A stretch of 64,000 nucleotides of DNA from an uncultured bacterium (GCA_964568455.1 CAZMPJ010000007.1:9393-73392); one strand, 5' to 3'. Shown: positions 18,400 through 37,211, counted from the first letter of the stretch. Translations and numbers: made by a program. The notes: a model not told the origin generated them from the sequence alone.

Positions 18400-19409
18400 A
18401 CATCAGTTTTGAGCAATATTTAGAACTTCTTCAGCCAAAGTCTGATCAAGAACTCGAACAAATGGCGCAAAAAGCCAGGCAACTTACCTTAAAACACTTT
18501 GGCAAGACTATATTATTGTATGCGCCAATTTATTTAAATAATGAATGTGATAATCACTGTGCTTATTGCGGATTTAACCAAAAACTATCTGAAAAAAGAG
18601 TTAGCCTTTCAATTGAGCAAGTTTTACAAGAAGCAGATTTGCTTTATAAAAAAGGTTTTCGTCATATATTATTAGTTTCCGGAGAAAAACGATCTAAAAT
18701 AACCATATCTTATTTAAAACAGATCGTTTCTGCTTTGCATGCTAAATTTAGTTCGATTGCTTTGGAAATATTCCCATTAACCGAAGATGAGTATAAAGAA
18801 TTATATTTAGCTGGGGTAGATGGCTTAACTATTTATCAAGAAGTCTATGATCAAGATATTTATAAAAAAGTTCACCCTAAAGGTCCTAAATCTGATTACT
18901 CGTATAGATTGGAAACTCCAGAGCGGGCAGCTCGAGCAGGCTTTTATCGTCTTAATATTGGCACTCTTTTAGGTTTGGGAAAATGGCAAGAAGAGGCTGC
19001 TCATCTTGGTCAGCATGCTCAATATTTAATGAAAAAGTATTGGCGCTGTCAGATTTCAGTTTCGTTCCCCCGTTTGCAATCTTCTGCAGCTGGGTTTAAG
19101 CCATTTTATCCCGTTTCTGATCGACAATTAGTGCAAATGATTTGCGCCTTAAGAATTTTCTTGCCGTCATTAGGATTGGTTTTATCAACCAGAGAAGGTA
19201 AAGAGCTAAGGGATAATTTAATTCCTCTAGGGATAACTCAAATGAGTGCAGAATCAAAAACTAGTCCAGGCGGGTATTCAAAGCAAATAAAAGCTGAAGA
19301 ACAATTTAGTGTGGCAGATAAAAGAACGGTCCAAGAAGTTGCAGCGGTAATTGCGGATAAGGGGTGCGAGCCAGTTTTTAAAGATTGGGATCGGTCATTT
19401 ATACGATGA
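18396..19409 (+). CDS. thiH: 2-iminoacetate synthase (tyrosine lyase, radical SAM)
   Basis: [10 protein letters not shown] radical-SAM motif. 337 aa. Overlaps the thiG stop. Confidence 0.85.
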
Positions 19410-20005
19410 GAAAATTTGCTGAAATAGATATTTATCCAGTTATTGATGATCTGGATATTTTAGATAAAGTTATTAAAGGCGGGGCAAAGATTGTTCAACT
19501 TCGCAATAAAGAGCTTGCTAAAAAAGATTTTTACGAACTTGCTTTGAAATTTAGAAAACTAACTTTTAAACATGAACTACTTTTGATTATTAATGACTAT
19601 CTTGATATTGCTTTAGAAATAAAAGCGGATGGAGTGCATTTGGGACAAGAAGATCTCCCGGTTGAGACCGCGCGCAAGCTTGCTCCTAAAATGATTATTG
19701 GGGTTTCAACTCATAATCTTGATGAAGCGTTGGCGGCGGAGCGGGGTGGGGCAACTTACATTAATATAGGACCAATTTTTAAAACGCAAACCAAAGCTAT
19801 GCAGCCAATTGGAATTGAGGCGATCAAAACAATTACCCCCAAGATAAGAATTCCGTTTACGGTTATGGGTGGGATTAATTTAGATAATATTAATCAGGTG
19901 CTTAAGGCTGGTGCAACTAAGATAGCTGTTGTGAGTGCTATTACCGCCTCTCTTGATCCCCGCTTGACAACCAAAAGGTTAATTGATATAATCTTGACTA
20001 AGTAA
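19385..20005 (+). CDS. thiE: thiamine-phosphate synthase
   Basis: 206 aa. IDIYPVID...VQLRNKE...ADGVHLGQED motifs of ThiE. Confidence 0.85.
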   Translation: MGSVIYTMRKFAEIDIYPVIDDLDILDKVIKGGAKIVQLRNKELAKKDFYELALKFRKLTFKHELLLIINDYLDIALEIKADGVHLGQEDLPVETARKLAPKMIIGVSTHNLDEALAAERGGATYINIGPIFKTQTKAMQPIGIEAIKTITPKIRIPFTVMGGINLDNINQVLKAGATKIAVVSAITASLDPRLTTKRLIDIILTK

Positions 20006-20063
20006 ATCGACATAGTAAAGAAAAAGTGATCATTTTCAGCTATTGTTACGATATACTATATAT

Positions 20064-20480
20064 ATGAAACTATCAGTAAGAGTCTTATACGGATTGAAAG
20101 CAGTCTTTGAACTGGCCCAAAGGTATGGGGCGGAAAAGGTCCAAATAGCGGAAATATCAAGAAAACAAAAAATTCCCATCCGTTATTTAGAGCAGTTACT
20201 ATTGGTTTTAAAAAGAAAGGGAATTGTTTATAGCATTAGAGGGAAGGATGGTGGTTATGTTTTGAAGAAGCATCCCGGCGATATTTCGGTTTTGGAAATA
20301 ATCGAAGCTTTTGAAGGGCCCATAGAATTGACCGGTAAAAAGGTAAAAGATGCACCGGCGATCTTGGGGTTTTTAAAAGAAGCGCAGGATGGTTTTAGGA
20401 AAAACTTGTCAGAGACTACGATTGAGGATTTGGTTTTTAAGAAAAAACAAAAAGATCGGGCTTATAATTATAATATATAG
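20064..20480 (+). CDS. Rrf2-family regulator without a Cys cluster (CymR-like cysteine metabolism repressor)
   Basis: MKLSVRVLYGLKAV... wHTH, GGYVLKK motif, no conserved Cys triad. The track ORF starts at an upstream TTG (20043). An ATG at 20064 gives the typical Rrf2 N-terminus. Confidence 0.7.
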   Translation: MKLSVRVLYGLKAVFELAQRYGAEKVQIAEISRKQKIPIRYLEQLLLVLKRKGIVYSIRGKDGGYVLKKHPGDISVLEIIEAFEGPIELTGKKVKDAPAILGFLKEAQDGFRKNLSETTIEDLVFKKKQKDRAYNYNI

Positions 20481-20492
20481 GGGGTCCATGAA

Positions 20493-21215
20493 ATGGGGAT
20501 ACTAGAAAATAAAGATGATTTGAAGAAACTGGTGGAGGAGTTGAATTTTAAAGAGAAAGTTGAAAGGTCTAAAGCCTTAATAAAAGAGGCCTATGAGAAA
20601 TACGGAGATGGATTAGTAGTGGCCAATAGTTTGGGTAAGGATTCTGTCGTAGTTTGGGATTTGGCTAAAAAGGTTAATCCTAAAATCAGAGGATTTGTGG
20701 TTACGACCAGATATAAGCCAAAAGAAACAAAAGAATTCATGAAAGACTTTGTTGTTAAATACCCTGAAACAAAAGTTTATGAAAACACGGCAAAAATACC
20801 AGAAAAACTTTATGAAACTGATCCCAACAAATGCTGTGACATTTTAAAAGTAGAACCAACTCGTTGGGCAGTGAAGGACATGAAGATTGATTGCTGGGTA
20901 ACTGGTTTGCGCTGTACTGAAGGACGCACTCGGACAGATTTTAAAGAAGTAGAAGAAAGAGATAAAGGATTGATCAAGCTTAATCCTATTTTGATCTGGA
21001 AAGAAAGAGAGATTTGGCAATATTTAGCTTTATATCAAGTTCCAGTCAATCCGCTTTACGGCGAAGGTTATCGTTCACTAGGTTGTGCACCATGTACTCA
21101 TATTACAACCGATGACAACGAAAGAGCAGGTCGCTGGATTGGGACCAGTAAATGTGGCGGAGAGTGTGGGATTCATACCCGGCCACTAAAGAATATTCAA
21201 GGAGAAGGTATTTGA
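20493..21215 (+). CDS. phosphoadenosine phosphosulfate reductase family protein (PAPS/APS reductase-like PP-loop enzyme)
   Basis: 240 aa. LGKDSVVVWDL PP-loop region and a C-terminal CC..GxxxC region as in CysH/CysD-like enzymes. Confidence 0.65.
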   Translation: MGILENKDDLKKLVEELNFKEKVERSKALIKEAYEKYGDGLVVANSLGKDSVVVWDLAKKVNPKIRGFVVTTRYKPKETKEFMKDFVVKYPETKVYENTAKIPEKLYETDPNKCCDILKVEPTRWAVKDMKIDCWVTGLRCTEGRTRTDFKEVEERDKGLIKLNPILIWKEREIWQYLALYQVPVNPLYGEGYRSLGCAPCTHITTDDNERAGRWIGTSKCGGECGIHTRPLKNIQGEGI

Positions 21216-22165
21216 TTTTTTTATTAGGCTTAAGCGTCATAATCTTTGCTATGATGATGGGAGCAAGCAATATTGCTCCCTCATTTGCAACTTTGTATGG
21301 CGCTAGGCTTATTGACCATAAAAAAGCAGTACTCTGGTTTACGGTTTTTGTTCTCTTGGGTGCTGTTGTTGGGGGATATGGCGTGGTCAATACACTGGGG
21401 ACAACATTAATTCCCAGCCAATTTATTTCAGTGCAGGTCGTGTTGGCTATTTTGTTGGCTGCCTTAGGTGGGCTTATTTTGGCTAACCTTTTGGGGGTAC
21501 CAGAGTCAACTAGTTGGGTTACAGTTTTTGCCATTGCTGGAGTTGGCGCTGGTATTGCGAAATTAGAATTAGCAGGGCTTTTTAAAATTATTCCTTTTTG
21601 GATTATCTTGCCTGTATTGGCTTTTATTATAACTTATTTTATTTATAAATTAATTTATCCGCCGCGTTTTACTAATTTATGGCTTTATCAGGCTTTGTTT
21701 AACCGCGAAGACAAGTTAAAGAAATTTGCTTTTGTTGTCAGCTGTTATCTAGCTTTTGCAGCTGGGACAAATAATGTTGCTAATGCCGTTGGCCCGTTAG
21801 TTGGTGGTGGTTTAATTAAGCCCTTGTTCGGGTTAATTATTGTGGCCTTATTATTTGGATTAGGGGGATTAATCTTAGGTAAAAGGGTCATGAAAACATT
21901 AGGACAAGAAATAGTTCCCTTAGGCTTAATTTCTGCTTCTTTAGTAGCGCTGATTACAGCTACTTTATTAATCTTTGCTTCAGCCATAGGAGTGCCGCAA
22001 TCATTAGTACAATTGAGTGCCTTATCCATTATGGCTATTGCTGCGGTAAAGCATGAACAGCACATTTTAAAGCAAAAAACTATTAGGAAAATCGTCTTAA
22101 CTTGGCTGATTTCCCCTACAATATCTTTTAGCTTGGGGTGGCTGCTATGCAAGTTGTTAGTTTAA
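21214..22165 (+). CDS. PiT-family inorganic anion permease (candidate sulfate permease CysP)
   Basis: Two PiT signature repeats (GASNIAPSFATLYGA and GTNNVANAVGPLVGG). A TTG at 21214 follows a GGAGAAGG RBS; the track ORF from 21152 overlaps the upstream gene. Context: between a CymR-like regulator, a PAPS reductase-like gene and siroheme/sulfite reductase genes. Confidence 0.6.
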
Positions 22166-22998
22166 ACTATAAAAACTCTTCTCTTGAAGAAAGAGAGGCA
22201 GCCTGGAAAAACTGGCAAGCAGCTGATGGCGTAATTTTAAAAACCTGCAATCGGGTTGAATTATACACTAAAGAGAATGACGGAAAATCTGCTATCCTGC
22301 ATTTGTTTAAGCTTGCCAGCGGTTTGGAATCTCAAATTTTAGGAGAAAGTGAGATTTTAGGCCAGATAAATAAACTGCGTGAAACCTTAAATGATAGTTA
22401 TTTGCGTAAAATATTTGACCAGGCAGTGAAAGTTGGCCGAAAAGTTAGGCGAGAAACGGGAATCTCTCGCGGCAATGTGTCCGTAGCTAGTGTGGCTGTA
22501 ACTTTGTTGGGTAAGGAAAAGAATAAAAAAATTATTGTTATTGGCAGTGGCAAAGTTACTGAAGCAGTATTAAAAAACCTGGCTAAGCGTGGATTTCAAA
22601 TTGTTTTAGTTGCCAATCGCACTTTTGCTAAAGCTCAAAAACTAGCTTCTATTATTGAGGCGAAGGCTATCCGTTTTAAAGAGCTAGCTGAAGAATTAAT
22701 TGAGGCTGATCTGGTTATAAGTTCAACTGCAGCACCGCATTTTGTGGTTGTACCAAAACAGATCAAACCACGGCGTAAACCTTTAGTCTTAATTGATTTG
22801 GCAGTGCCCAGAGATATTGATCCCGCAATTGCCAAGTTAACATCGGTTAGTTTATATAATATTGATGATATAAAAGAAACGATCAGCTTGAATTTGCTTA
22901 AAAGAAGGATTGAAGCAATAAAAGCTGAAAAAATTATTGAAGATGAGATGGAAAAGTTTTGCGCAAAATTAGAATTGGCAACCGTAGCAGTCGCTTAG
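22138..22998 (+). CDS. hemA: glutamyl-tRNA reductase (compact, 286 aa)
   Basis: CNRVELY active-site motif and Rossmann GSGKVTEAV. Shorter than the usual about 420 aa; the C-terminal dimerisation region is abbreviated. Confidence 0.78.
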   Translation: MAAMQVVSLNYKNSSLEEREAAWKNWQAADGVILKTCNRVELYTKENDGKSAILHLFKLASGLESQILGESEILGQINKLRETLNDSYLRKIFDQAVKVGRKVRRETGISRGNVSVASVAVTLLGKEKNKKIIVIGSGKVTEAVLKNLAKRGFQIVLVANRTFAKAQKLASIIEAKAIRFKELAEELIEADLVISSTAAPHFVVVPKQIKPRRKPLVLIDLAVPRDIDPAIAKLTSVSLYNIDDIKETISLNLLKRRIEAIKAEKIIEDEMEKFCAKLELATVAVA

Positions 22999-23597
22999 CC
23001 TTGGCGCAAGCAGCTGAAATAACTAAGCAATTTGGTGAACAAGAAATTGAATTGTTGACCTTTGCAACTAGTGGAGATCTGGATAAAGAGACTCCGATTG
23101 ACCAGGTTGAAGGCACAGACTTTTTCACTGACCGGATTGAACAGGCTTTATTGGAAAAGAAAATTGATTTAGCCATTCATTCGGCTAAAGATTTGCCGAA
23201 AGAGATACCGTCAGGGCTTGAGATAACTGTTTTTACGCCTTCGGCAGACAGCAGTGATGCTTTAGTTTCGCGCAATAATCTTAAGTTGGCGGATCTGCCG
23301 GCTGGAAGTAAAGTGGGGACTAGCAGCAAAAGACGCAAAGAACAGTTGCTTAAGTTTGCGCCACAAGTAAAGGTAGTTGATTTGCGAGGCAGTATTGATG
23401 AGCGGTTGGCCAAACTTGATCAAGGAGAATACGATGCGATCATTATCGCGACAATCGCGCTTAAACGCTTGGGGTTAGAGCATAGGATTTCAGAAAAGTT
23501 GTCGTTTGTTACTGCAAGCGGACAAGGCTCGCTAGCTCTTGAAGTTAGAAAAGAGGATAAGGATTTAAGACAATGGCTAAAGCAAAAGTTTATTTAA
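22959..23597 (+). CDS. hemC: porphobilinogen deaminase (short form, 212 aa)
   Basis: IRIGNRSSRLALAQA N-terminus and dipyrromethane-cofactor domains 1-2. Overlaps the hemA end by 40 nt in another frame. Confidence 0.72.
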   Translation: MRKIRIGNRSSRLALAQAAEITKQFGEQEIELLTFATSGDLDKETPIDQVEGTDFFTDRIEQALLEKKIDLAIHSAKDLPKEIPSGLEITVFTPSADSSDALVSRNNLKLADLPAGSKVGTSSKRRKEQLLKFAPQVKVVDLRGSIDERLAKLDQGEYDAIIIATIALKRLGLEHRISEKLSFVTASGQGSLALEVRKEDKDLRQWLKQKFI

Positions 23598-24955
23598 TAG
23601 GAGCTGGCCCAGGTAGGTCGGATTTAATTACTGTGCGTGGGCTTGAAGTGCTTAAGCAGGCTGATGTGGTTATTTATGACTATTTAGTTGGTGAACAATT
23701 AGCGCGATCCGCAGCTAAAAGTGCCAAACTTATTTGCTCACATGACCTGGGGAAAATTCCTTATCATGCCAATATGGTTCAAGCTCAAAAAAATATTAAT
23801 CAAGCAATGGTTAAGGAAGCAAAAAAAGGAAAAAAAGTAGTTAGGCTTAAAAATGGAGATGCTGCCATCTTTAGCCGGCTTAGCGAAGAAATAAATATTT
23901 TGTTGGCTAACAAAATTGAGTTTGAAATTGTACCGGGTGTAACTGCAGCCAGTGCTGCAGCTGCTTATAGCGGCATCCCGCTGACAGAGCGCGGTAAGGC
24001 TAGGAAGCTGGCTTTTGTAACTGGCCATGATTCTAATATTAATTGGGAAGAATTGGTTAGCTTGGAAACAATTGTTATTTATATGGGAGTAAGCAATCTA
24101 AAAAAAATTATTAAACGCTTGTTGGACCTGGGTAAAGCAAAAAATACTCCAGCAGTAATAATAACTAATGCTGGAGCAATTAATCAATTAACAATTAAAG
24201 GTCAGCTTAAGGATCTTGTGGTAAAAGCCGTAAAAAATAGAATTAAGCCTCCAGCAATAATAATTATCGGTAAAACAGTTGGGCGGGAAACAAAATTTAA
24301 CTGGCTTAGAAAAAATAAGCGAATCTTGTTTACCGGCTTGTCAGCTGAAAGATATTTTTTAAAAGGTACTTATTTTCATTTACCTTTAATTAAAATTGAA
24401 CCGCTTAAAGATTATGCGCGGCTTGATCGTTGGGTTAAAAAGTTGTCGACTTTTAATTGGCTGGTTTTTGCCAGTCGTTATGGGGTGGATTTTTTCTTTG
24501 AACAACTTTTAGCTCAAGGTGAAGATGTTAGAGGATTATTCGGCTTAAAAATAGCGGCAGTGGGGCAATCAACTGCAAATCGACTGCTTGATTTTGGAAT
24601 AAAAGCTGACTTAGTGCCCAAAGTTGAATCTTCCGATGGTTTAGTTGCAGCCTTTAAAAAAGAAAAAATAAACGGGCAACTAATTTTTATGCCTCGTTCT
24701 GATTTAGCTGATAAAGGTTTGGAGCAAAAAATTTCCAAGTTAGGAGCAAAGGTTGTATCTTGTGTTGCTTATCGCAACCAGATGCCAAAAAATTTACCAG
24801 ACTTGGATTTAGCATTTTTTAACGAGATCATGTTTACCAGCCCTTCAACAGTTAGAAATTTTAAGAAACGTTATAAAAAGGTTCCTAAGGGAGTAAGGGT
24901 TAGTTGTATTGGAGACAGAACAAAACAGGAGTTTAAGAGTGAATTTAGACGTTAA
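23573..24955 (+). CDS. cobA/hemD: uroporphyrinogen-III C-methyltransferase / uroporphyrinogen-III synthase fusion
   Basis: N-terminal SUMT (VYLIGAGPG, VVRLKNGD) plus a C-terminal HemD-like domain. 460 aa. Confidence 0.85.
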   Translation: MAKAKVYLIGAGPGRSDLITVRGLEVLKQADVVIYDYLVGEQLARSAAKSAKLICSHDLGKIPYHANMVQAQKNINQAMVKEAKKGKKVVRLKNGDAAIFSRLSEEINILLANKIEFEIVPGVTAASAAAAYSGIPLTERGKARKLAFVTGHDSNINWEELVSLETIVIYMGVSNLKKIIKRLLDLGKAKNTPAVIITNAGAINQLTIKGQLKDLVVKAVKNRIKPPAIIIIGKTVGRETKFNWLRKNKRILFTGLSAERYFLKGTYFHLPLIKIEPLKDYARLDRWVKKLSTFNWLVFASRYGVDFFFEQLLAQGEDVRGLFGLKIAAVGQSTANRLLDFGIKADLVPKVESSDGLVAAFKKEKINGQLIFMPRSDLADKGLEQKISKLGAKVVSCVAYRNQMPKNLPDLDLAFFNEIMFTSPSTVRNFKKRYKKVPKGVRVSCIGDRTKQEFKSEFRR

Positions 24956-25799
24956 AAATTTAATCATGCCATATTTTGTGGTAGCCGGGCAAAAGGAAAA
25001 GCAAGAAATTAAGGCTATGCCCGGGATTTATAGGTTTTCTATTGATAACCTTTTGCTGGAAGTGCGCGATGGTCTGGCTTTGGGGATTGATAAAATTTTG
25101 CTTTTTGGCTTACCTCAAAAAAAAGATGAGCATGGATCAGAAGCCCATGCTGAAGATGGGGTAGTGCAAGAAGCAGTGGTTAAACTAAAAGAAGCTTTTC
25201 CAAAACTGACAGTTATTACTGATGTGTGTTTGTGTGCTTACACCACCCATGGCCATTGTCACCTTTTTAACGCTGAAAAAACGCTTGAGCAATTATCCAA
25301 GATTGCTGTGTCGCATGCACAAGCAGGTGCAGATTATGTAGCACCTTCAGCTATGGCCAGAGGTCAGGTTAAAAGTATAAGAAAAGCACTTGATCAAGCA
25401 GGTTTAAAAAAGACTAAAATCTTAGCTTATTCAGCAAAATTTGCTTCTGAATTTTATGGTCCTTTCAGAGAAGCGGCAAATTCTACACCCGTTTCTGGTG
25501 ACCGTAGTGGTTATCAATTGAACCCACTGCATAAAGAACAAGCTTTAGCCAGAATTAAGATTGAGATCCATGAGGGAGCAGATGTAGTTATGGTAAAACC
25601 AGCCCTGGCTTATCTTGATGTGATTTATCAGGCTAAACAATTGATAAACGTGCCTTTGGCAGCTTATAATGTTAGTGGCGAATATAGTTTATTGTATGGC
25701 AAAAAAAAGCTGATCTTAGAATCTCTTCAAGCCATCAAACGCAGTGGAGCGGACTGGATCATTACTTATTTTGCAAAAGAGGTTGCGCAATGGTTATGA
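24909..25799 (+). CDS. hemB: porphobilinogen synthase (delta-aminolevulinate dehydratase)
   Basis: 296 aa. Active-site region around SAMARGQVKSIRKAL and Zn/Mg-type motifs CLCAYTTHGHC. Confidence 0.85.
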   Translation: METEQNRSLRVNLDVKNLIMPYFVVAGQKEKQEIKAMPGIYRFSIDNLLLEVRDGLALGIDKILLFGLPQKKDEHGSEAHAEDGVVQEAVVKLKEAFPKLTVITDVCLCAYTTHGHCHLFNAEKTLEQLSKIAVSHAQAGADYVAPSAMARGQVKSIRKALDQAGLKKTKILAYSAKFASEFYGPFREAANSTPVSGDRSGYQLNPLHKEQALARIKIEIHEGADVVMVKPALAYLDVIYQAKQLINVPLAAYNVSGEYSLLYGKKKLILESLQAIKRSGADWIITYFAKEVAQWL

Positions 25800-26914
25800 A
25801 TTTATGGCAGCAAGCCAATAAATATTTAGTTGGCGGGGTAAATAGCCCGGTTAGGGCGTTTGGCCCGGTTGGCGGCAATCCAGTTTTTATAGCTAAGGCT
25901 AAAGGTTCTAAAGTCTGGGACGTGGAAGGCCAACAATATATTGATTATGTTGGCAGCTGGGGGGCTTTGATTGCTGGACATGCGCATCCAAAAATTATTG
26001 CGGCAGCAAGCGCCGCTTTAAAAAAAGGCAGCAGTTTTGGCGCGCCGACCGAAGCGGAAACTGAATTAGCTCAAGAAATTTGCCAGGCATTTCCTTCAAT
26101 CCAAAAAGTGCGCTTAGTCTCTTCGGGAACCGAAGCGGTTATGGGCGCTATTAATGTGGCCCGCGTTTACAGCGGACGCAAACAAGTGATAACTTTTAAA
26201 GGTTGTTATCACGGTTGGATCTTGTCTGCTGATACTAACAAAAAGATTTTACCTTATAATGATTTAGAAGCAGTAAGTAAAGTGATAAAAAAAGAGCATA
26301 AGCAGATCGGGGCAATTATTGTGGAGCCTGTAGCCGGCAACATGGGAGTGAAAGCGCCTAAGCCAGAATTTTTAAAAGGCTTACGCCGGTTAGCCGATCG
26401 TTTTAAAATTGTTTTAATCTTTGATGAGATTATTACGGGTTTTAGGATTGCTTACGGAGGAGCGCAAGAATATTTTGGCATAAAAGCTGATCTTACTTGT
26501 TTAGGTAAGGTTATTGGGGGAGGGTTTCCAATTGCGGCTTATGGAGGAAAAAAAGAAGTTATGGATTTGGTTGCTCCTAAAGGATCAGTTTATCAAGCTG
26601 GTACCTTGTCAGGAAATCCGGTGGCAGTTGCGGCAGGGTTAGCGACTTTAAAGATCTTAAGTAGTAAAGGGGTTTATGTTAAACTAGAGGAAAGAACAAA
26701 AGAGCTTTGTTTGGGTATGAAAAAACCATTTTCTCAAATAGGCTCAATGTTTAGTTTTGTTTTTGGTTCCGAAAACGAGTTTCGAAGATTTTTTTGGAAA
26801 CTTTTGCGCCAAGGGATTTATTTTGCCCCGTCTGCTAGCGAAGCGAATTTTATTTCTTTGGCTCATAGTGATCGAGATATTAAAGAAACCATAAAAAAAG
26901 GAGGAGCGTTATGA
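25790..26914 (+). CDS. hemL: glutamate-1-semialdehyde 2,1-aminomutase
   Basis: LVGGVNSPVRAF N-terminal motif. 374 aa class-III aminotransferase. Confidence 0.88.
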   Translation: MVMNLWQQANKYLVGGVNSPVRAFGPVGGNPVFIAKAKGSKVWDVEGQQYIDYVGSWGALIAGHAHPKIIAAASAALKKGSSFGAPTEAETELAQEICQAFPSIQKVRLVSSGTEAVMGAINVARVYSGRKQVITFKGCYHGWILSADTNKKILPYNDLEAVSKVIKKEHKQIGAIIVEPVAGNMGVKAPKPEFLKGLRRLADRFKIVLIFDEIITGFRIAYGGAQEYFGIKADLTCLGKVIGGGFPIAAYGGKKEVMDLVAPKGSVYQAGTLSGNPVAVAAGLATLKILSSKGVYVKLEERTKELCLGMKKPFSQIGSMFSFVFGSENEFRRFFWKLLRQGIYFAPSASEANFISLAHSDRDIKETIKKGGAL

Positions 26915-28062
26915 AGATTACGGTAAATGGAAAATTAGAAGAAGTTTCGTCTGAGATAACAATACTTGGTTTGTTGGAGGCAAAAAACATCAAGCCAGAA
27001 GTGGTGGCGGTGGAGCATAATAATGAAGTGATTGAAAAAGAGCAATACGGAAAAAAAGACTTAAAGGATTCAGATCAGATCGAGATTGTTTATTTTATGG
27101 GGGGAGGGGAGTTGAAAGATGCTCCTAAAAAATGCGGTAGCCAAGTGGCAGATTCTGTTGCAGAACTTATTGGTAATACTCCTATATTAAGATTAAATAA
27201 GGTTGTGACCAAAGATATGGCAGAAGTTCTGGTAAAACTTGAGTCTGCTAATCCTGGCGGATCAGTCAAAGACCGTATTGCGCTTTCGTTAATTGAAGCG
27301 GCAGAAGCAAGCGGAAAATTAAAACCTGGTGGCACTATTATTGAGCCTACTTCTGGTAATACTGGCATAGGCCTTTCTTTGATTTCCGCGGCCAGGGGTT
27401 ATAAATGCATTTTAACCATGCCAGAGTCAATGAGCTTAGAAAGAATTTATATACTTAAATCTTATGGTTCAGAAGTTGTCTTAACGCCTGCGGCAGAAGG
27501 CATGAACGGAGCTATTAAAAAAGCCGAACAATTAATGAAAAAAACTAAAGGAAGTTTTATGCCTCAGCAATTTAAGAATAAGGCTAATCCGCAGGCTCAC
27601 CGTGAAACCACTGCACTGGAAATATTAAAAGCAACTGACGGTAAAGTGGATGCTTTTGTTTCCGGAGTTGGGACAGGGGGCACTATTACTGGGGTGGGTG
27701 AGATTTTAAAAAAGGAAAATGCAAAAGTATTGGTGATAGCTGTTGAACCGGCAAAATCAGCAGTTCTTTCTGGTGGCAGCGCTGGTCCTCACAAGATTCA
27801 GGGAATTGGAGCAGGTTTTGTGCCAGAAGTTTTAAATCTTAAGGTGATTGATGAAATTATCAAAGTAGAGGATGACCAGGCTTTTAATACTTCAAAACAT
27901 TTGGCAAAAAAAGAAGGCTTGTTTGTGGGGATTTCTGCTGGAGCGGCTATTTATGCTGCTTTAGAAGTAGCTAAAAAGCTAGGTAAAGGTAAAAGGGTAG
28001 TGACGATTTTGCCAGATACTGGAGAACGTTATTTTAGCATGGAACAATATTTTACTGGATAA
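26911..28062 (+). CDS. ThiS/MoaD-like sulfur-carrier domain fused to cysteine synthase (CysO-CysM-type fusion)
   Basis: Residues 1-65 (MKITVNGKLEEV...IEIVYFMGGG) form a ThiS-like beta-grasp ending in GGG. After a short linker comes a full PLP cysteine synthase domain (GNTPILRL, PGGSVKDR, TSGNTGIG). Confidence 0.8.
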   Translation: MKITVNGKLEEVSSEITILGLLEAKNIKPEVVAVEHNNEVIEKEQYGKKDLKDSDQIEIVYFMGGGELKDAPKKCGSQVADSVAELIGNTPILRLNKVVTKDMAEVLVKLESANPGGSVKDRIALSLIEAAEASGKLKPGGTIIEPTSGNTGIGLSLISAARGYKCILTMPESMSLERIYILKSYGSEVVLTPAAEGMNGAIKKAEQLMKKTKGSFMPQQFKNKANPQAHRETTALEILKATDGKVDAFVSGVGTGGTITGVGEILKKENAKVLVIAVEPAKSAVLSGGSAGPHKIQGIGAGFVPEVLNLKVIDEIIKVEDDQAFNTSKHLAKKEGLFVGISAGAAIYAALEVAKKLGKGKRVVTILPDTGERYFSMEQYFTG

Positions 28063-28119
28063 TATCTCGAGTCGCCTGCCTGTCGGCAGACAGGCTCGAT
28101 ATAAAGGAGGTTTCAAAAG

Positions 28120-29376
28120 ATGAAAAAGAAAAATAAGGATTATCATATTGATACACTTTTAGTGCACGCGGAAAATAATCCGGAAAAGAATCGGCGTGCT
28201 ACTACTATGCCGATCTACCAAACTAGTTCATTTAAATATGATAGTAGTGAGCAGCTTTCTAAGGTTTTTAATGGGGAAGCAGCTGGCAATATTTATACCA
28301 GGATTTCTAATCCAACCCTTGAAATTTTGGAAAAAAAGTTAACTATCTTAGAAGATGGGTTAGGGGCCATTGTTTGCTCTTCGGGCATGTCAGCTATTAC
28401 GGCTGCTGTTTTAACTTTGGCCAAGTCGGGCCATCATGTGATAGCAGGCAATTCCATATTTGGCGGAACTTATTCTTTTTTTGATAAGACTGTTCGTGAA
28501 TTTGGAGTTGCAACTACTTTTGTGGACCCAACTGATCTTAAGCAATTTGAAGCAGCCATAAAAGATAATACTAAAGCTATCTTTATTGAAACTATTGGTA
28601 ATCCAAAAATTGATGTGCCAGATATTGCTGCCATTGCTAAGCTAGCTCAAAAAGCCCAGATCCCGCTAGTGGTTGATAGTACCAGCACCACTCCTTATCT
28701 TATTCGACCAAAAGATTTTGAAGCTAATATAGTGGTCCATTCCACTTCTAAGTTCATTAATGGCCATGGTAATTCTATTGGCGGTGCGATTGTTGACTTG
28801 GGTAATTTTAATTGGGAGTCAAGCCGCTTTGACCATTTTAAAAAATACAGCAGCAAATATAAACAGTTAGCGTTTTTAGCTAAAACCAGAAGAGAGGTTT
28901 TTCGTGATTTTGGAGGTTGTCTTGCGCCTCATTCTGCCTTTTTAACTGACATTGGACTTGAAACTCTTTCACTTAGGATGGAAAAGCATTGCCAAAACGC
29001 GCAAAAGCTGGCTGAGTTTCTGGCTAAGCATCCCAAAGTTAAACAGGTTAACTATCCAGGCCTAAAAGAAAATAAATTTCATAGCCTTACCGCAAAACAG
29101 TTTGGCAATAAGTTTGGCTCTCTACTTACTTTTAAATTAAAAGATAAAAAACAATGTTTTAAAGTGATAGATTCTTTGCAGCTGGCTTATAACCTGGCAA
29201 ATTTGGGAGATGCCAAAACCTTGGTTATTCATCCTGCCTCAACTATTTGCATTGAATTTAATGAGCAGGAAAAGAAAGATATGGGGGTAAGCGAAGATTT
29301 GATCAGGGTTTCTGTTGGCATTGAATATAGCGATGATATTATCGCTGATTTTGAGCAGGCATTGGAGGCAATCTAA
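28120..29376 (+). CDS. metY: O-acetylhomoserine (thiol)-lyase family PLP enzyme (MetY paralog 1, within the thiocarboxylate cluster)
   Basis: 418 aa Cys/Met-metabolism PLP fold (STSKFINGHGNSIGG). Confidence 0.8.
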   Translation: MKKKNKDYHIDTLLVHAENNPEKNRRATTMPIYQTSSFKYDSSEQLSKVFNGEAAGNIYTRISNPTLEILEKKLTILEDGLGAIVCSSGMSAITAAVLTLAKSGHHVIAGNSIFGGTYSFFDKTVREFGVATTFVDPTDLKQFEAAIKDNTKAIFIETIGNPKIDVPDIAAIAKLAQKAQIPLVVDSTSTTPYLIRPKDFEANIVVHSTSKFINGHGNSIGGAIVDLGNFNWESSRFDHFKKYSSKYKQLAFLAKTRREVFRDFGGCLAPHSAFLTDIGLETLSLRMEKHCQNAQKLAEFLAKHPKVKQVNYPGLKENKFHSLTAKQFGNKFGSLLTFKLKDKKQCFKVIDSLQLAYNLANLGDAKTLVIHPASTICIEFNEQEKKDMGVSEDLIRVSVGIEYSDDIIADFEQALEAI

Positions 29377-30174
29377 ATGGCATTATCCGAAGAACAAATA
29401 GAGCGCTATAGCCGGCATATAATATTAAAACAAGTTGGGGGCAAAGGACAGGAAAAACTTTTGTCTGGCAAAGTTTTAATTATTGGTGCGGGTGGATTAG
29501 GCTCACCGGCAGCTTTGTATTTAGCTGCAGCCGGAGTAGGGACTATTGGTATTGTTGATTTTGATAAAGTTGATCTGACTAATTTGCAGCGCCAGATTAT
29601 CCATTTTACTAAAGACCTAAATAAAGAAAAAGTAGTTTCAGCTAAAGAAAAAATGGAAGCAATTAATCCGGATGTAAAAGTTAAAGTCCATCAACTTTTG
29701 CTTGATTCTTCAAACATTTTAGATATTATCAAAGATTATGATTTTATAATCGATGGAACGGATAATTTTCCAGTTAAATTTTTAATTAACGATGCTTGTG
29801 TCATGCAAAAAAAACCTTTTTCTCATGGTGGGATCCTGCGTTTTGAGGGACAGACTTTTACTCACACTCCTGGCAACGCTTGTTACCGCTGTCTTTTCAA
29901 AGAACCTCCACCGAAAAATGCTGTGCCCACTTGTTCCCAGGCTGGGATTTTAGGGGCGGTGGCTGGGATGTTGGGGACGGTGCAGGCGGCTGAAGCTTTA
30001 AAATATTTAATTGGTATTGGAGATCTTTTAAAAAACCGCTTGCTTATTTTTGATGCGCTGAAGATGGAGTATCGCACTGTCAAGATAAAAAAATCAAAAA
30101 CTTGTCCGATTTGTGGAGATAAACCAACAATTAAGAAATTAATTGATTATGAACAGGCGGCCTGTGATTTATGA
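29377..30174 (+). CDS. E1-like adenylyltransferase of the ThiF/MoeB/MoeZ family
   Basis: YSRHIIL..VG..GQEKL, GAGGLGSPAALYLAAAGVG Rossmann, C-terminal CxxC...CxxC zinc motif. Confidence 0.85.
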   Translation: MALSEEQIERYSRHIILKQVGGKGQEKLLSGKVLIIGAGGLGSPAALYLAAAGVGTIGIVDFDKVDLTNLQRQIIHFTKDLNKEKVVSAKEKMEAINPDVKVKVHQLLLDSSNILDIIKDYDFIIDGTDNFPVKFLINDACVMQKKPFSHGGILRFEGQTFTHTPGNACYRCLFKEPPPKNAVPTCSQAGILGAVAGMLGTVQAAEALKYLIGIGDLLKNRLLIFDALKMEYRTVKIKKSKTCPICGDKPTIKKLIDYEQAACDL

Positions 30175-30563
30175 TCAAGATTTCCCAAGATATAATAGAT
30201 AGAATTAAAAGCCATGCTAAAAAAGAGGTGCCGATTGAAGCTTGTGGCTATTTGGCTGGGAAAAATGGAGAAATTTCTGAATCTTTCCCAATGTCTAATA
30301 TAGATAAAAGCCCGGAACATTTTTCTTTTGATCCTAAGGAACAGTTTAAAGTTATTAAAGCAGCCAGGGCAAAAGGGTTGGAACTGATTGTGGTTTATCA
30401 TTCTCACCCAGCTTCGCCTGCGCGCCTGTCCAAAGAAGATCTGCGTTTGGCGTATGATCCAAATACTATTCACTTGATCTATTCATTGTTAAACCAAGAG
30501 ATAAAAGCATTTAAAGTAGTAAATGGAGATATTAAAGAGGAAGCAATTGAGGTTTTATCATGA
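30171..30563 (+). CDS. JAMM/MPN+ metalloprotease (Mec+/CysO-hydrolase-like)
   Basis: 130 aa with E-x(n)-HSHP-x7-S-xx-D JAMM motif (EACGYLAG ... VYHSHPASPARLSKED). Confidence 0.8.
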   Translation: MIKISQDIIDRIKSHAKKEVPIEACGYLAGKNGEISESFPMSNIDKSPEHFSFDPKEQFKVIKAARAKGLELIVVYHSHPASPARLSKEDLRLAYDPNTIHLIYSLLNQEIKAFKVVNGDIKEEAIEVLS

Positions 30564-32746
30564 ATTTTTATGATTTACCACAAACATTAGCAGCGGATAT
30601 TAAAAAATATGATGAATTAGTTAAAGGTTATAAAGATAAAACTGTTGATAAAGTAAAATTTAAAGCCTTTCGAGTCCCAATGGGAGTTTATGAACAGCGG
30701 GAATCAGAAACCTATATGTGCCGAGTCCGTTTACCGGGTGGCGCGATTACTCCTACTCAATTGATTGCAGTGGCCGCGGTGGCTAAAAAATATTCTGACC
30801 GGCCGCTTCATTTTACCACTCGCCAAGAAGTGCAAATCCACCATTTAAAGCTTGAAAATACGGTTAAGATTATGCAAGAGCTTAAATTAGTTGGCTTATC
30901 TACTCGCGGGGGTGGGGGCAATACTATCAGGAATATTATGGGAGCGGTTTCAGCTGGAGTGGATCAAGCAGAAGCTTTTGACATCAGCCCTTATGTCCAG
31001 GCCTTAACCAGCAGAATGATTGCGGAAAAAGATTCCTGGTCGCTTCCTCGCAAATTAAAGATTGCTTTTTCCGGTAGTCCCCAGGATGAAGGGTTGGCCA
31101 CTGTAAATGATTTAGGTTTTGTTGCCAAACTTGATCCAAAACTTGGCAAAGGTTTTGCTGTTTATATTGCTGGTGGCATGGGCAGTAAGCCTCAGCCAGG
31201 AATTTTGCTTTATCCTTTTGTGCCAGAAAAAGAAGTCTATAACATTGCTCGGGCAGTCAAGGTTTTATTTGATAAATATGGTAACCGAAAAAATAAAAAC
31301 GCGGCTCGCATGAGATTTTTATTTAATAATTTGGGCAAAGAAGAATTTATTCGCCGTTTTAAAGAAGAATTAGAAAAGGTTAAAAAAGAAGGGGCTAAAC
31401 CACTTTCAATTTTATCAATCCCAAAAGTAAAGACAGGGTTTTTAGAAATCCCTCTCTTTTTAGGTGACCTATCTCCTGAAAAAGCTAAGTTATTGGGAAA
31501 CAGTCTAAAAGAGTATGGAGAAGATATAGTGAGGGCGGCTACAACCCAAAACCTCTTATTAAGGAATATTGATCCCTCAAAAATAACTGAACTAAAAGCT
31601 GGCTTGCAAGAGCAGGGGATATTAGAAAAACTGCATCCAGTGGTGGCAAAAGCTGCTGCTTGCGCTGGCGCTAGTACCTGTCGTTTAGGAATTTGTCTTT
31701 CAAGGGGATTGCTTGAGGCAATTAAAGATCAATTTGAAAAAGATAAGCTTAAGTCTGAAAAGTTGGAAGATATAGCCTTAAAAGTATCTGGCTGTCCTAA
31801 TAGCTGTGGTCATCATCCTATTGCTGATATTGGGTTTTATGGGGTGGTAAAAAGACAGCATAACCGTTTGGTTCCTAGTTATACTTTAGTGGTTGGGGCA
31901 GTGGTGGAAGAGGGAAAAACAAAGCTAGCGGAAAAAATCGGGGTTTTACCAGCCAAAAATATACCTTTTTTCCTGTCCGAGTTTCTAAAGTATGTTCAGC
32001 AGACAAGGAAAAAAGAAGAGAGCTTTGCTCAATATTTAAATCGGGTAGGACGCGATGAGATTGATAAATTACTGGAGAAATATTCTTTGGTGCCTGATTT
32101 TAACAAAGATAAAAATTATTATTATGATTGGTCGGCAACCGAGATTTTTTCTTTAGCGGGTAAAGCGCAAGGAGAGTGTTCTGCTGGTATATATGATTTA
32201 ATTGATTGGGATTTTTCTAATATTAAAGACGGTTTAACGAAGAAAAATGCTCGTTCAGTTGTTCTAGCGGCTAGCCGTGCCTTGTTGGTTACCAAAGGCT
32301 TGGAGCCTAAGAGTGAAAGGGAGGCTGTGGAATTATTTAGAGATAATTTTATTGGCCGCCATCTTGAGATCAAATATAAGACTGTAATTGATAAGTATTT
32401 AAGTCAAAAGGATATTCTCCTTCAGGAGGCGCAAGGATTGAGTGAAGCAGTACGCCAACTTTATGATACAATGGATAATTCCTTAAAATTTCCAGAGTTA
32501 GAAAATGTAAAAGTAGAGCAAAAGGCGGGACAGTTTCGTGATTTCCGGGGAGTGGCCTGCCCAATGAATTTTGTTAAAACAAAGCTGGTGTTGGAAACAA
32601 TGCAGCCAGGAGAAAAACTGGAAATTTTGCTTGATGATGGTGAGCCAATCGATAATGTGCCTGGTTCTGTAAAAGCTGAAGGGCATAAAATATTAAAACA
32701 GGAGAAAAAAGATAATTACTGGATGGTAGTTATTAAAAAAGTTTAA
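30560..32746 (+). CDS. sir: assimilatory sulfite reductase (ferredoxin-type siroheme hemoprotein) with a C-terminal TusA-like sulfur-carrier domain
   Basis: Nitrite/sulfite reductase ferredoxin-like half domains and siroheme-4Fe4S Cys cluster (CAGASTCRLGIC...CPNSCGHH). The last about 75 aa (VACPMNFVKTKLVLETMQPGEKLEILLDDGE) have the TusA/SirA two-layer motif. Confidence 0.8.
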   Translation: MNFYDLPQTLAADIKKYDELVKGYKDKTVDKVKFKAFRVPMGVYEQRESETYMCRVRLPGGAITPTQLIAVAAVAKKYSDRPLHFTTRQEVQIHHLKLENTVKIMQELKLVGLSTRGGGGNTIRNIMGAVSAGVDQAEAFDISPYVQALTSRMIAEKDSWSLPRKLKIAFSGSPQDEGLATVNDLGFVAKLDPKLGKGFAVYIAGGMGSKPQPGILLYPFVPEKEVYNIARAVKVLFDKYGNRKNKNAARMRFLFNNLGKEEFIRRFKEELEKVKKEGAKPLSILSIPKVKTGFLEIPLFLGDLSPEKAKLLGNSLKEYGEDIVRAATTQNLLLRNIDPSKITELKAGLQEQGILEKLHPVVAKAAACAGASTCRLGICLSRGLLEAIKDQFEKDKLKSEKLEDIALKVSGCPNSCGHHPIADIGFYGVVKRQHNRLVPSYTLVVGAVVEEGKTKLAEKIGVLPAKNIPFFLSEFLKYVQQTRKKEESFAQYLNRVGRDEIDKLLEKYSLVPDFNKDKNYYYDWSATEIFSLAGKAQGECSAGIYDLIDWDFSNIKDGLTKKNARSVVLAASRALLVTKGLEPKSEREAVELFRDNFIGRHLEIKYKTVIDKYLSQKDILLQEAQGLSEAVRQLYDTMDNSLKFPELENVKVEQKAGQFRDFRGVACPMNFVKTKLVLETMQPGEKLEILLDDGEPIDNVPGSVKAEGHKILKQEKKDNYWMVVIKKV

Positions 32747-32749
32747 AAA

Positions 32750-33742
32750 ATGAAAGCATTATTATTACTTTCTGGAGGCTTAGACAGCCGTTTGGCAGCA
32801 AAATTGATGAAAGCGCAAGGGATTGAAGTTTGCGCAATTAATTTTAAGACTTTATTTTGCAATTGCACTTCTAAGGGGAGCTGTAAATTAGAAGCACAAA
32901 AAGCGGCAGATGATGAAGGGATTGACATAAAAATCCTTAATATGACGCAGCCGTTTTTGGAAAAGATTAAACAGCCAAAGTATGGCTATGGTTCTGGCAT
33001 AAACCCTTGTCTTGACTGTCGTATTCTCATGTATAGCAAGGCTAAAGAATACATGCAAGAAGTTGGGGCATCTTTTATTGTAACCGGAGAAGTTTTAGGA
33101 CAGCGGCCAATGTCACAAAGATTAGAGGCTATTCGCATTATTGATCGAGATTCCGGGTTAGAAGGGTTGATCTTGCGGCCGTTGTCAGCGCAGCTTTTTG
33201 AACCGAGTATTCCAGAAAAAGAAGGCTGGGTTGACCGAGCTAAATTTCTTTCTATCAGTGGCCGGTCTAGAAAACCCCAGATTCAGCTGGCTAAAGAACT
33301 AGGACTATATGATTATCCTTGCCCAGCTGGTGGTTGTTTGCTGACTGAAGCTGAATTTGCTAAAAAAATGAGAGATTTGATGAAGCATGGAGATTTAACT
33401 TTAAATGAAGTTATGCTTTTAAAGTTAGGTAGACATTTTCGTATTGATGATAAAACTAAAGTAGTAGTGGGCAGAAATGATTTAGAAAACAAGCAAATAT
33501 TAAATTTAGCTCAACCAGAGGAATTATTGTTTGAACTTCATGAAAAAACTGGTCCGCTAACGCTTTTAAGAGGGGCAACGGGAGAGAAAGAGCAAGAAAT
33601 TGCCGCTGGCCTGACTATTTATCATAGTAAAAGCAAGGCTTTGCCAAAAGAATCTGTCAGAATGTTTAATCGAGCAAAAGAAGGCAAAATAATTGAAGTT
33701 AGTCCTCTTACCCCAGCGCAAGTCACAACCCTTCGAATTTAA
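32750..33742 (+). CDS. ThiI-like PP-loop ATP pyrophosphatase (tRNA sulfurtransferase-like) lacking a THUMP domain
   Basis: SGGLDS PP-loop at the N-terminus. GEVLGQRPMSQRLEAI resembles the ThiI GESLGQVASQTL motif. PCPAGGC near the C-terminus. Confidence 0.45.
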   Translation: MKALLLLSGGLDSRLAAKLMKAQGIEVCAINFKTLFCNCTSKGSCKLEAQKAADDEGIDIKILNMTQPFLEKIKQPKYGYGSGINPCLDCRILMYSKAKEYMQEVGASFIVTGEVLGQRPMSQRLEAIRIIDRDSGLEGLILRPLSAQLFEPSIPEKEGWVDRAKFLSISGRSRKPQIQLAKELGLYDYPCPAGGCLLTEAEFAKKMRDLMKHGDLTLNEVMLLKLGRHFRIDDKTKVVVGRNDLENKQILNLAQPEELLFELHEKTGPLTLLRGATGEKEQEIAAGLTIYHSKSKALPKESVRMFNRAKEGKIIEVSPLTPAQVTTLRI

Positions 33743-33774
33743 GTTTTATCTTCTAATCGTTACTGGTATAATAA

Positions 33775-36160
<2,386 letters not shown>

Positions 36161-36164
<4 letters not shown>

Positions 36165-36751
36165 AGATAGATCATAAAATTATAGCGGACTTGATTCAAG
36201 ATGGCTCAAAGGTCTTAGACCTTGGTTGTGGCGATGGAAGCTTGCTGGAATCTTTAATTAAAAATAAAAATGTTACTGGCATGGGAGTGGATAATTGGCC
36301 GGAAGGTTTAAATGAATCCATGAGCAAGGGGTTGCCGGTAATGCAGTTTGACTTAAATAAAGGGTTACAAACGTTTAAAGACCAGTCTTTTGATTATGTG
36401 GTCTTAAACATGACTTTGCAGGCCATGAATCGGCCAGACCAAGTAATTAAAGAGATGATCAGGGTAGGTAAAAAAGCGATTGTAGGCTTTCCAAACTTTG
36501 GCCATTATAAATTAGTTTTGCGAATGCTTTTTAGTGGTAGGATGCCTAAGACCAAAACCTTGCCTTATGAATGGTATAACAGCCCTAATATCAGGCTAAT
36601 GACTATTCAGGATTTTAGACAGCTTTGTGTTGACACTAATCTAAAGATATTAAAACAAACCTTTTTAAATGAAAATGGAAAACAGATTTCAGGCCATTTA
36701 ATGAGGTGGCGAGCTTCGGAAGGTATATTCCTGCTTGAGAGTGCAAGTTAA
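36161..36751 (+). CDS. metW: methionine biosynthesis protein MetW
   Basis: 196 aa. [11 protein letters not shown] methyltransferase-like motif. Overlaps the metX stop, as usual for metXW. Confidence 0.8.
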
Positions 36752-36782: not shown

Positions 36783-37211
36783 TTGCTTATGAAAGCAACA
36801 AAATTTATTATCTTAATAATGATCGCTTTTACCCTGCTTTTTGTGCCTTGTAGCGCCAAAAACAGCGGTTACCGCTTGGTCTATTCTGGTAAAGTTACCA
36901 TGACTGCTTATAACTCACTTGAAAACCAAACCGACAGTACCCCTTGGATAACCGCAGCTGGAACCAGATGTAGAGAAGGGGTTATTGCTTCAAACTTCTT
37001 GCCCATGGGAACCAAGGTAATGATTGAAGGTTTTGGAGACCGGATGTTTGTGGTAGAAGACCGCATGAACCGCAGGTATAAAAATCGCATTGATATTTGG
37101 TTTAGATCTTACGGTGATGCCATTAAATTCGGCCGCCGAACGCTTAAGTTTTATGTAGTAGAAGAAGTAAAACCAACCAAGCTTAATCTTGCCTCTCTCT
37201 TTAATATCTAG
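36783..37211 (+). CDS. 3D-domain protein (MltA-like/YuiC-like, cell-wall associated), secreted
   Basis: Signal peptide, then MTAYN...TAAG...G..AS...PMGTKV...DRM conserved-Asp pattern of 3D domains. 142 aa. Confidence 0.6.
   Translation: MLMKATKFIILIMIAFTLLFVPCSAKNSGYRLVYSGKVTMTAYNSLENQTDSTPWITAAGTRCREGVIASNFLPMGTKVMIEGFGDRMFVVEDRMNRRYKNRIDIWFRSYGDAIKFGRRTLKFYVVEEVKPTKLNLASLFNI

Follow-up and report, generated by a model that had tools for sequence, protein, structure and literature searches.

How could a ubiquitin-like sulfur carrier that depends on a free C-terminal Gly-Gly carboxylate do its work when it is translated as the N-terminal part of the very enzyme that it may serve? This question is raised by a 64,000-nt stretch of DNA from an uncultured bacterium (GCA_964568455.1 CAZMPJ010000007.1:9393-73392; the whole stretch is termed the window), in which one open reading frame (ORF) joins a ThiS-like carrier to a complete cysteine synthase. 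An earlier description made from the sequence alone (the sequence-only reading) had listed here a ThiS-CysM fusion, a MetY, a ThiF/MoeZ-type E1 and a JAMM protease, and had placed a cleavage site behind the junction IVYFMGGG. All four ORFs were found in this order on the + strand, each supported by profile matches, and the sequence indeed reads IVYFMGGG followed by a linker. Our analysis leads to an interpretation that we consider on balance probable: the locus would be a sulfate-to-cysteine/homocysteine operon operating with a protein thiocarboxylate, whose pro-carrier is freed by the JAMM protease at Gly66 and used by CysK and probably by a divergent MetY paralogue (MetY'). The features at the heart of this interpretation are:

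26911-27108, + strand: ThiS-type beta-grasp sulfur-carrier domain, residues 1-66, ending in IVYFMGGG (from profile and fold).
27106-27108, + strand: codon of Gly66, after which the proposed cleavage would occur.
27109-27159, + strand: linker ELKDAPKKCGSQVADSV (residues 67-83), differing between homologues in both length and sequence; predicted to be disordered.
27160-28062, + strand: CysK-type O-acetylserine sulfhydrylase domain, residues 84-383 (profile and PDB matches).
28120-29376, + strand: MetY', divergent O-acetylhomoserine sulfhydrylase paralogue, 418 aa (TIGR01326).
29377-30174, + strand: E1-like adenylyltransferase of the ThiF/MoeB/UbaA type without rhodanese domain, 265 aa (PF00899, 272 bits).
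30171-30563, + strand: JAMM/MPN+ metalloprotease (Prok-JAB), 130 aa (PF14464, 80.7 bits).
30560-32746, + strand: assimilatory sulfite reductase (Sir), NirA-like, with C-terminal TusA domain (profile matches).

The fusion ORF (26911-28062) encodes 383 aa, comprising a ThiS domain, the linker and a complete cysteine synthase, with a junction that reads QIEIVYFMGGG-ELKDAPKKCGSQVADSV-AELIGNTP. The carrier domain matched PF02597 over residues 3-66 (41 bits versus a cut-off of 22.5) and the TIGR01683 thiS model over its entire length (profile positions 1-64 of 64 on residues 3-66; 71 bits versus 37.45). Modelled alone with AlphaFold2, it attained a predicted local distance difference test score (pLDDT) of 91 and the strand order strand-strand-helix-strand-strand-strand; fold searches returned template modelling (TM) scores of 0.85 to ThiS 3cwi and 0.84 to the ThiS of 1zud, the top matches being ThiS chains in complexes with ThiF and ThiG. 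In sequence alignments, Gly66 coincides with the last residue, a Gly, of solved ThiS chains. A beta-grasp fold, whose absence would have spoken against the sequence-only reading, was thus recovered, and profile and model agree in assigning the N-terminal domain to the ThiS family of beta-grasp sulfur carriers.

The pyridoxal phosphate (PLP) domain, by contrast, did not bear out its earlier CysM label. Residues 84-378 matched PF00291 (PALP) and scored 451.5 bits with the TIGR01139 cysK model (cut-off 350.95), whereas both CysM models stayed below their cut-offs (TIGR01138, 296.6 versus 394.2 bits; NF008735, 291.8 versus 413), and the closest PDB sequences were canonical CysK enzymes (2egu, 388 bits; M. 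tuberculosis CysK1 2q3b, 364 bits). The PLP lysine is K120 in SVKDR, and the SVKDR, TSGNTG and GTGGT loops are invariant in the alignment. By these comparisons the domain classifies as CysK-type rather than CysM-type, with O-acetylserine rather than O-phosphoserine as its probable substrate. We also looked for relatedness to the M. tuberculosis proteins and saw none in either domain: CysM was absent from the top 60 PDB matches of the PLP domain, and CysO from the PDB sequence and fold matches of the carrier.

AlphaFold2 predicted the full fusion as two confident domains separated by residues 63-83 with a pLDDT below 50. The protein has the features of a linear carrier-enzyme fusion, namely a carrier N-terminal to its client, a conserved Gly-Gly junction and a flexible linker. 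The primary translation product has no free C-terminal Gly-Gly carboxylate, GGG (residues 64-66) being internal, and would acquire one only upon cleavage.

As the junction lies in a G-rich run, it had to be asked whether an indel had joined two genes, or whether ribosomal frameshifting at this run yields free carrier. Such notions draw on the fact that a one-base shift behind GGG in the window would give GGGS-stop, the +1 frame closing after a single codon. The fusion is genuine nonetheless. The identical protein is present on 8 independent metagenomic contigs, and among the 120 best matches from 5.8 billion proteins ThiS and PALP were fused in 120 of 120, which rules out a sequencing or assembly artefact. 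Frameshifting to a free carrier is ruled out by Gly codons that differ between these homologues and by off-frame stops within 5 codons of GGG (29% and 49%) that were not commoner than at control positions (39% and 45%), so that we assign the two notions together a negligible probability. The junction read MGGG in 119 of the 120 homologues and IGGG in the remaining one, followed by a variable residue (P1') and by 9-22 aa (median 13) between GGG and the xIGxTP motif of CysK.

We propose the following sequence of events. Translation would yield a single chain whose first 66 residues are the carrier and whose remainder is its client CysK. JAMM, encoded three genes downstream, would cut this chain after Gly66 (GGG/E), leaving a 33.3 kDa CysK and a carrier of 7.4 kDa that ends in an exposed Gly-Gly-Gly carboxylate. 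The rhodanese-less E1 would then adenylate the freed carrier, and sulfur from the siroheme sulfite reductase, delivered either as sulfide or through Cys667 of the reductase-fused TusA, would turn the acyl-adenylate into a thiocarboxylate. With its flexible tail the carrier could enter the CysK active site and attack the PLP-aminoacrylate derived from O-acetylserine; an S-to-N acyl shift would produce carrier-cysteine, and hydrolysis of this adduct by JAMM would release cysteine and recycle the carrier. MetY' would repeat the chemistry on O-acetylhomoserine, yielding homocysteine. The model put forward by the sequence-only reading is supported in that it agrees with all of the in-silico evidence.

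The motifs of the partner proteins are in line with such a pathway. The E1 carries GAGGLG at 37, CYRC at 169, CPIC at 243 and the crossover-loop Cys186, as expected for an E1 of this type, in a ThiF domain covering residues 11-244 of 265. Of the earlier label ThiF/MoeZ, the ThiF-type E1 stands (PF00899) and MoeZ falls, because the protein has no rhodanese domain: the MoeZ model gave 323.7 bits against a cut-off of 647, with only positions 14-272 of 392 matched. We infer that rhodanese is replaced here by the TusA domain at the C-terminus of sulfite reductase; this domain spans residues 661-727 (nt ~32540-32743) and contains Cys667, behind a reductase part with CAGASTC at 368 and CPNSC at 412. 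The JAMM protein, whose nearest solved chain is 2kks, shows the complete signature of its family, Glu23 and H77-S-H79-x7-S87-x2-D90 (H77SHPASPARLSKED90). Judged by these residues, the catalytic motifs of JAMM, E1, Sir and TusA are intact. MetY' barely passes its subfamily model (TIGR01326, 514 bits versus 495) and has orthologues at the same position in three related loci (L001, L018, L025); we propose that it is a thiocarboxylate-dependent homocysteine synthase. A special kinship to the thiocarboxylate-dependent Wolinella MetY was considered and dropped, since 3ri6 (327 bits) ranks 8th, after ordinary MetY enzymes.

For a comparative view, one genome per species was scanned with the carrier-domain alignment, which found 150 species, of which 80 loci were kept and annotated using the window's own proteins. 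Most are from Omnitrophota, the others from Saganbacteria, WOR-1, Margulisiibacteriota, Endomicrobia/Elusimicrobiota, Caldisericota, Dictyoglomaceae, Zixibacteria, Ratteibacteria, Sumerlaeota and Nitrospirae. Of the 80 loci, 54 encode carrier and CysK as one protein; in the other 26 the carrier is unfused, and a stand-alone CysK gene nearly always follows directly. Since the two forms are intermixed in the CysK tree, joining or splitting of the genes has taken place several times. Co-occurrence was counted in 22 well-covered loci (at least 8 kb upstream and at least 5 kb downstream): E1, sulfite reductase and TusA were each present in 22/22, Sir and TusA being fused or adjacent, and JAMM was present in 21/22, including 17/17 of the fused ones. 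The profiling of ThiS-cysteine synthase fusions that the sequence-only reading had suggested has thereby come out in its favor. By gene order and CysK tree, the nearest loci are the Saganbacteria/WOR-1 loci L001, L018 and L025; Saganbacteria L001 and WOR-1 L025 share the exact order of the window, ThiS-CysK, MetY', E1, JAMM, Sir-TusA, which Saganbacteria L018 shows with an unfused carrier.

Blocking of the carrier C-terminus extends well beyond CysK fusions. Among the 26 unfused orthologues next to CysK, 2 (L003, L007) end at GGG-stop and the others are tailed, with GGGN, GGGLL, GGGREA, GGG(R/G)YAF (three genomes) and longer endings; one locus of this set encodes a ThiS-TusA fusion. When 1.84 billion protein representatives were searched exhaustively with the carrier profile and the best 150 were examined, 15 ended at the glycines and 135 continued beyond GGG, by 1-10 residues in 73, 11-30 in 36 and more in 26, the long ones including fusions to CysK, TusA and the N-terminus of MetY. 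The GGG-stop carriers among these 150 show the ordinary thiamine-ThiS motif E[IV]V.F[VI]GGG and not EF[VL]Y[YF]MGGG. Further partners found behind GGG were TusA, MetY N-termini, a NIL-like domain and possibly ThiG (L072 9974-10423; P0132, P0151, P0168, P0196, P0207, P0249, P0252, P0015, P0017), and 514-aa triple fusions place an N-terminal DUF454 membrane domain before ThiS-CysK.

Such near-universal tails and fusions imply that the CysK fusion is a particular case of a broader scheme that needs a peptidase to uncover the carboxylate. Carried further, the ThiS subfamily with EF[VL]Y[YF]MGGG might serve generally as a pro-carrier whose C-terminus is hardly ever free at synthesis but is covered by a tail, CysK, TusA or MetY, JAMM gating all sulfur flux, with sulfur kept on proteins from sulfite via the siroheme reductase to the TusA cysteine, the thiocarboxylate and finally CysK/MetY', no free sulfide being released, and with ThiG/ThiH as a further client where these lack their own thiS/thiF. 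We put this forward tentatively and regard it as rather doubtful in this full scope; if true, one ubiquitin-like carrier would have several clients in anaerobic, mostly uncultivated phyla.

Several points weigh against the interpretation that JAMM frees a pro-carrier which then serves both amino acids. No serine acetyltransferase was seen in the 64-kb window, and in every member of the family cleavage and thiocarboxylate formation rest on inference. The JAMM gene also adjoins the GGG-stop carriers of L003 and L007, so that its presence alone is no proof of processing, and several Endomicrobia/Elusimicrobiota loci with tailed carriers (L020, L059) have no JAMM within reach. The PLP domain looks like an ordinary CysK, for which free sulfide supplied by the neighboring reductase might be enough. 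Finally, a single carrier for both amino acids is no rule, because L018 has a second carrier before its canonical MetY (MetY2): this second tailed ThiS (6778-6999, ending in KFMGGGQYNER) lies between JAMM and MetY2 and suggests that canonical MetY, too, can have its own carrier.

The two observations on JAMM would also suit a scenario in which the fusion is cleaved by another cellular peptidase, the operon JAMM being only a Mec+-like hydrolase that frees cysteine or homocysteine from the adduct. JAMM adjoining carriers that need no trimming indeed makes it very probable that the enzyme has such a second, Mec+/HcyD-like role. As a replacement for the first role we nevertheless hold this scenario to be unlikely, given that JAMM accompanies every well-covered fused locus and that Wolinella HcyD is said both to trim HcyS-Ala and to free homocysteine. 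Both cleavage types are also carried out by HvJAMM1 (PMC4443979), although M. tuberculosis MoaX, cut by a protease as yet unidentified (PMC4326299), offers a precedent for the scenario.

The canonical and complete appearance of the CysK domain could also mean that the fusion is never cleaved, the ThiS domain being a docking or regulatory element, CysK running on free sulfide, and E1 and JAMM serving some other purpose; uncleaved Ub-like domains fused to ThiF do exist (Iyer et al. 2006). This is hard to reconcile with an internal GGG that is invariant while the linker drifts, with the predicted disorder of that linker, with orthologues that exist as free-standing carriers, with partners that vary (CysK, TusA, MetY) while carrier and GGG stay constant, and with the tight co-occurrence of E1 and JAMM, and we accordingly consider an uncleaved fusion very unlikely.

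Does one carrier serve two enzymes in the window? In 51 of the 80 loci a second, MoaD/SAMP1-like carrier ending in AIAGG stands beside a threonine-synthase-like (ThrC-like) PLP enzyme, just before E1; in several loci it is fused to the E1 N-terminus (ORFs of 366-400 aa), and in 44 loci a small NIL-domain protein follows E1. With the second carrier adjoining the ThrC-like enzyme, each of the two carriers has a PLP enzyme of its own as neighbor, and the case for CysK as partner of the ThiS-type carrier becomes stronger. By analogy, the pair of ThrC-like and MoaD-like proteins looks like a MetM/MetO-type homocysteine branch. In Omnitrophota-type modules (L015 13558-16330; L075 12228-14822), four genes lie between Sir/TusA and thiG, encoding a ThrC-like PLP enzyme with N-terminal zinc ribbon, a MoaD/SAMP1-like carrier (AIAGG), an E1 and an 80-aa NIL-domain protein. 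The window itself yielded no ThrC-like, MoaD-like or NIL genes (phmmer with the MoaD-like carrier of related loci) and no second free-standing carrier when its six-frame ORFs were compared with the subfamily hidden Markov model, scanned for GG endings and searched with the MoaD-like carrier by phmmer. As it encodes MetY' in place of that branch, one carrier for both CysK and MetY' appears reasonable here, and on the gene content we consider it plausible.

Cysteine is the usual sulfur source for ThiS, and the linkage to CysK might accordingly be mere co-expression with a cysteine-making enzyme, the carrier being essentially the cell's thiamine ThiS for the ThiG/ThiH thiazole synthase. Upstream of the module, the window contains:

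17635-20005, + strand: ThiG, ThiH and ThiE without adjacent thiS or thiF (profile matches).

These thi genes lie 7 kb upstream, and apart from the cysteine module, 7-10 kb downstream of the thi block, no part of the 64 kb encodes a ThiS-like domain or a ThiF-like E1. The carrier passes the ThiS equivalog model by the margin given above, its nearest solved relatives are thiamine ThiS proteins, and adjacency to thi genes is seen in L015, L069 and L075 as well, with E1 directly before thiE/thiG; Iyer et al. (2006) read ThiS-cysteine synthase links in Chlorobi in this way. The same authors, however, found JAB proteases to be absent from thiamine operons, and thiG is nearby in only 3 of the 80 loci, the constant partners of the carrier being Sir, TusA, CysK and JAMM. 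Moreover, L025 encodes a separate pair of a short E1 (ThiF) and a VGGG-stop ThiS, and the thiamine-type motif of the GGG-stop carriers differs from that of the tailed subfamily. A carrier devoted to thiamine is thus improbable in our view; it is possible, with some uncertainty, that the carrier doubles as thiamine ThiS, with thiG/thiH/thiE as a further client of carrier and E1.

Among known systems, the closest is the Wolinella succinogenes pathway of HcyS-Ala, HcyD (JAMM), HcyF (E1), Sir and MetY, reportedly described by Krishnamoorthy and Begley in 2011. It likewise combines a carrier, a rhodanese-less E1, a JAB protein, SirA/TusA, sulfite reductase, PAPS reductase and O-acetylhomoserine sulfhydrylase in one operon, takes its sulfur from sulfite reductase and makes its carrier with residues after GG for removal by JAMM. 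The extension there is one alanine, whereas here it is a whole CysK, and the window in addition has a cysteine branch and a TusA fused to the reductase. Such an operon had been defined as type 4e by Iyer, Burroughs and Aravind (2006), with ThiS/MoaD, JAB, an E1 always without rhodanese, SirA/TusA, sulfite reductase, PAPS reductase and O-acetylhomoserine sulfhydrylase, Wolinella being among the examples. The window has this gene content, so the Wolinella-type logic claimed for it by the sequence-only reading stands. Iyer et al. (2006) also predicted JAB release of fused ThiS/MoaD and suggested that a TusA relay replaces rhodanese.

The CysO/CysM/Mec+/MoeZ system of M. tuberculosis shares with the window the combination of a carrier thiocarboxylate, a PLP beta-replacement enzyme and an adduct-cleaving JAMM, as well as operon linkage, but here the carrier is ThiS-type, the enzyme CysK-type, and the E1 is without MoeZ's rhodanese. 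In Pseudomonas thioquinolobactin synthesis, two residues after GG of QbsE are removed by the operon JAMM QbsD before adenylation; this differs from the window in being a secondary-metabolite pathway with a short tail and an E1 with rhodanese. Siderophore clusters were discussed by Iyer et al. (2006).

Precedents for freeing a carrier from its own client come from molybdopterin (MPT) synthase. HvJAMM1 cuts linear SAMP1-MoaE exactly after the last Gly, GG being required, and the client enzyme becomes active through this cut (PMC4443979), and the MoaD-MoaE fusion MoaX of M. tuberculosis needs a cut at Gly82 to function (PMC4326299), which a Gly-to-Ala change blocks. Both resemble the window in having the carrier N-terminal to its own client, a GG junction and a need for cleavage after the last Gly (by JAMM in Haloferax); carrier subfamily, pathway and client differ (MPT synthase there, PLP cysteine synthase here), and here JAMM is encoded in the same operon. 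The MetO/MetM system, which makes homocysteine from O-phosphohomoserine by way of a thiocarboxylate (Hasebe et al. 2024, as summarized in the GapMind 2026 preprint), also combines carrier, Mec-type JAMM, E1 and PLP enzyme; resembling genes are those beside ThiS-CysK in the 51 loci mentioned, while the window has MetY' in their place. Eukaryotic ubiquitin precursors, i.e. Ub-ribosomal protein fusions processed by deubiquitinases, likewise involve a Gly-Gly beta-grasp protein that is born fused and freed by a peptidase before meeting its E1, but the protein here is a sulfur carrier and not a protein modifier, and the analogy is one of logic, not of membership.

Operon type (2006), the chemistry in Wolinella and Mycobacterium, and JAMM release of fused molybdopterin-synthase carriers are thus known. 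No description of a ThiS-CysK fusion was found in full-text literature searching, Omnitrophota genomics included, in agreement with the earlier statement that the architecture is uncharacterised; new with respect to the literature found are the occurrence of this fusion across many uncultivated phyla and the near-universal blocking of the carrier C-terminus. Databases name the fusion proteins plain 'cysteine synthase A', so that reconstructions of Omnitrophota, Margulisbacteria, Elusimicrobiota and others assume sulfide-dependent cysteine synthesis and overlook the carrier route. The fusion would be a clean bacterial JAMM substrate, a single chain predicted to be cut once into pieces of 7.4 and 33.3 kDa, and would extend the ubiquitin-precursor logic (born fused, peptidase-freed, E1-activated) from molybdopterin synthase to amino-acid biosynthesis. 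Blocked carriers and the constant Sir-TusA-E1 trio also prompt the question by what path sulfur from sulfite arrives at a thiocarboxylate when no rhodanese is present.

The sequence-only reading had confined the module to 26911-30563. Its four genes lie there, but overlapping or abutting genes extend over 20043-36751, so that the module spans ~20.0-36.8 kb. The further features are:

19964-19992, + strand: promoter-like site, TTGACA-17-TATAAT with TG (extended -10), 12/12 sigma-70 consensus matches, ~50 nt before the Rrf2 gene.
20043-20480, + strand: Rrf2/CymR-like regulator heading the sulfur operon (TIGR00738, 105 bits; CymR model 95 bits, below its cut-off).
20493-21215, + strand: CysH (PAPS/APS reductase; profile match), kept beside the module in related loci.
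21152-22165, + strand: CysP-type sulfate permease (profile match), kept beside the module in related loci.
22138-26914, + strand: HemA, HemC, CobA-HemD fusion, HemB and HemL, siroheme precursor genes (profile matches).
32750-33742, + strand: PP-loop ATPase (ThiI/MnmA-like N-terminus) with NFACT-R_2 domain, 330 aa (profile matches).
33793-35064, + strand: canonical MetY (731 bits).
35061-36164, + strand: MetX (profile match).
36161-36751, + strand: MetW (profile match).

The promoter-like site, a consensus match only, could possibly be the operon promoter; apart from this one perfect match, terminator and promoter scans of the region gave counts no different from shuffles. Synteny places an Rrf2/CymR-like gene upstream of CysH in many related loci. 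By family assignment, CysH and the CysP-type permease would account for sulfite supply, the five tetrapyrrole genes, whose HemA-HemL block recurs in most related loci, for the siroheme cofactor of sulfite reductase, and MetY/MetX/MetW for supply and use of O-acetylhomoserine. HemA (286 aa) and HemC (212 aa; together 22138-23597) are far shorter than their family models, covering profile positions 91-335 of 416 and 1-213 of 293, respectively; either their starts have been assigned wrongly or the proteins are compact and lack terminal domains.

The PP-loop/NFACT-R_2 protein, encoded directly 3' of Sir-TusA, has homologues near the module in L014, L015, L022, L041, L045 and L051; its role in the module is uncertain, and it may thiolate tRNA with sulfur from the same relay. 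Just downstream of the module are genes for a LarE-like sacrificial sulfur transferase, a NifS cysteine desulfurase and MnmA (37224-38000, 40769-41935, 43143-44246), sulfur-trafficking genes being unusually dense in this neighborhood. Three ORFs gave no profile match: 4758-6848 (696 aa) and 41938-43050 (- strand, 370 aa) at Pfam E ≤ 1e-5, and 36783-37211 (142 aa), located between MetW and LarE, at Pfam E ≤ 0.001 and NCBIfam E ≤ 1e-5. A MetH-like methionine synthase of 811 aa (52396-54831) has homocysteine-, pterin- and B12-binding domains, but Pfam gave no family for a reactivation domain at its C-terminus. Rubrerythrins, an ODP-family metallo-beta-lactamase-fold protein, a hybrid-cluster (prismane) protein and a 347-aa Kelch-repeat protein are encoded among 1230-1760, 2923-4684, 10306-11943 and 50159-51202; the first three kinds point to an anaerobe.

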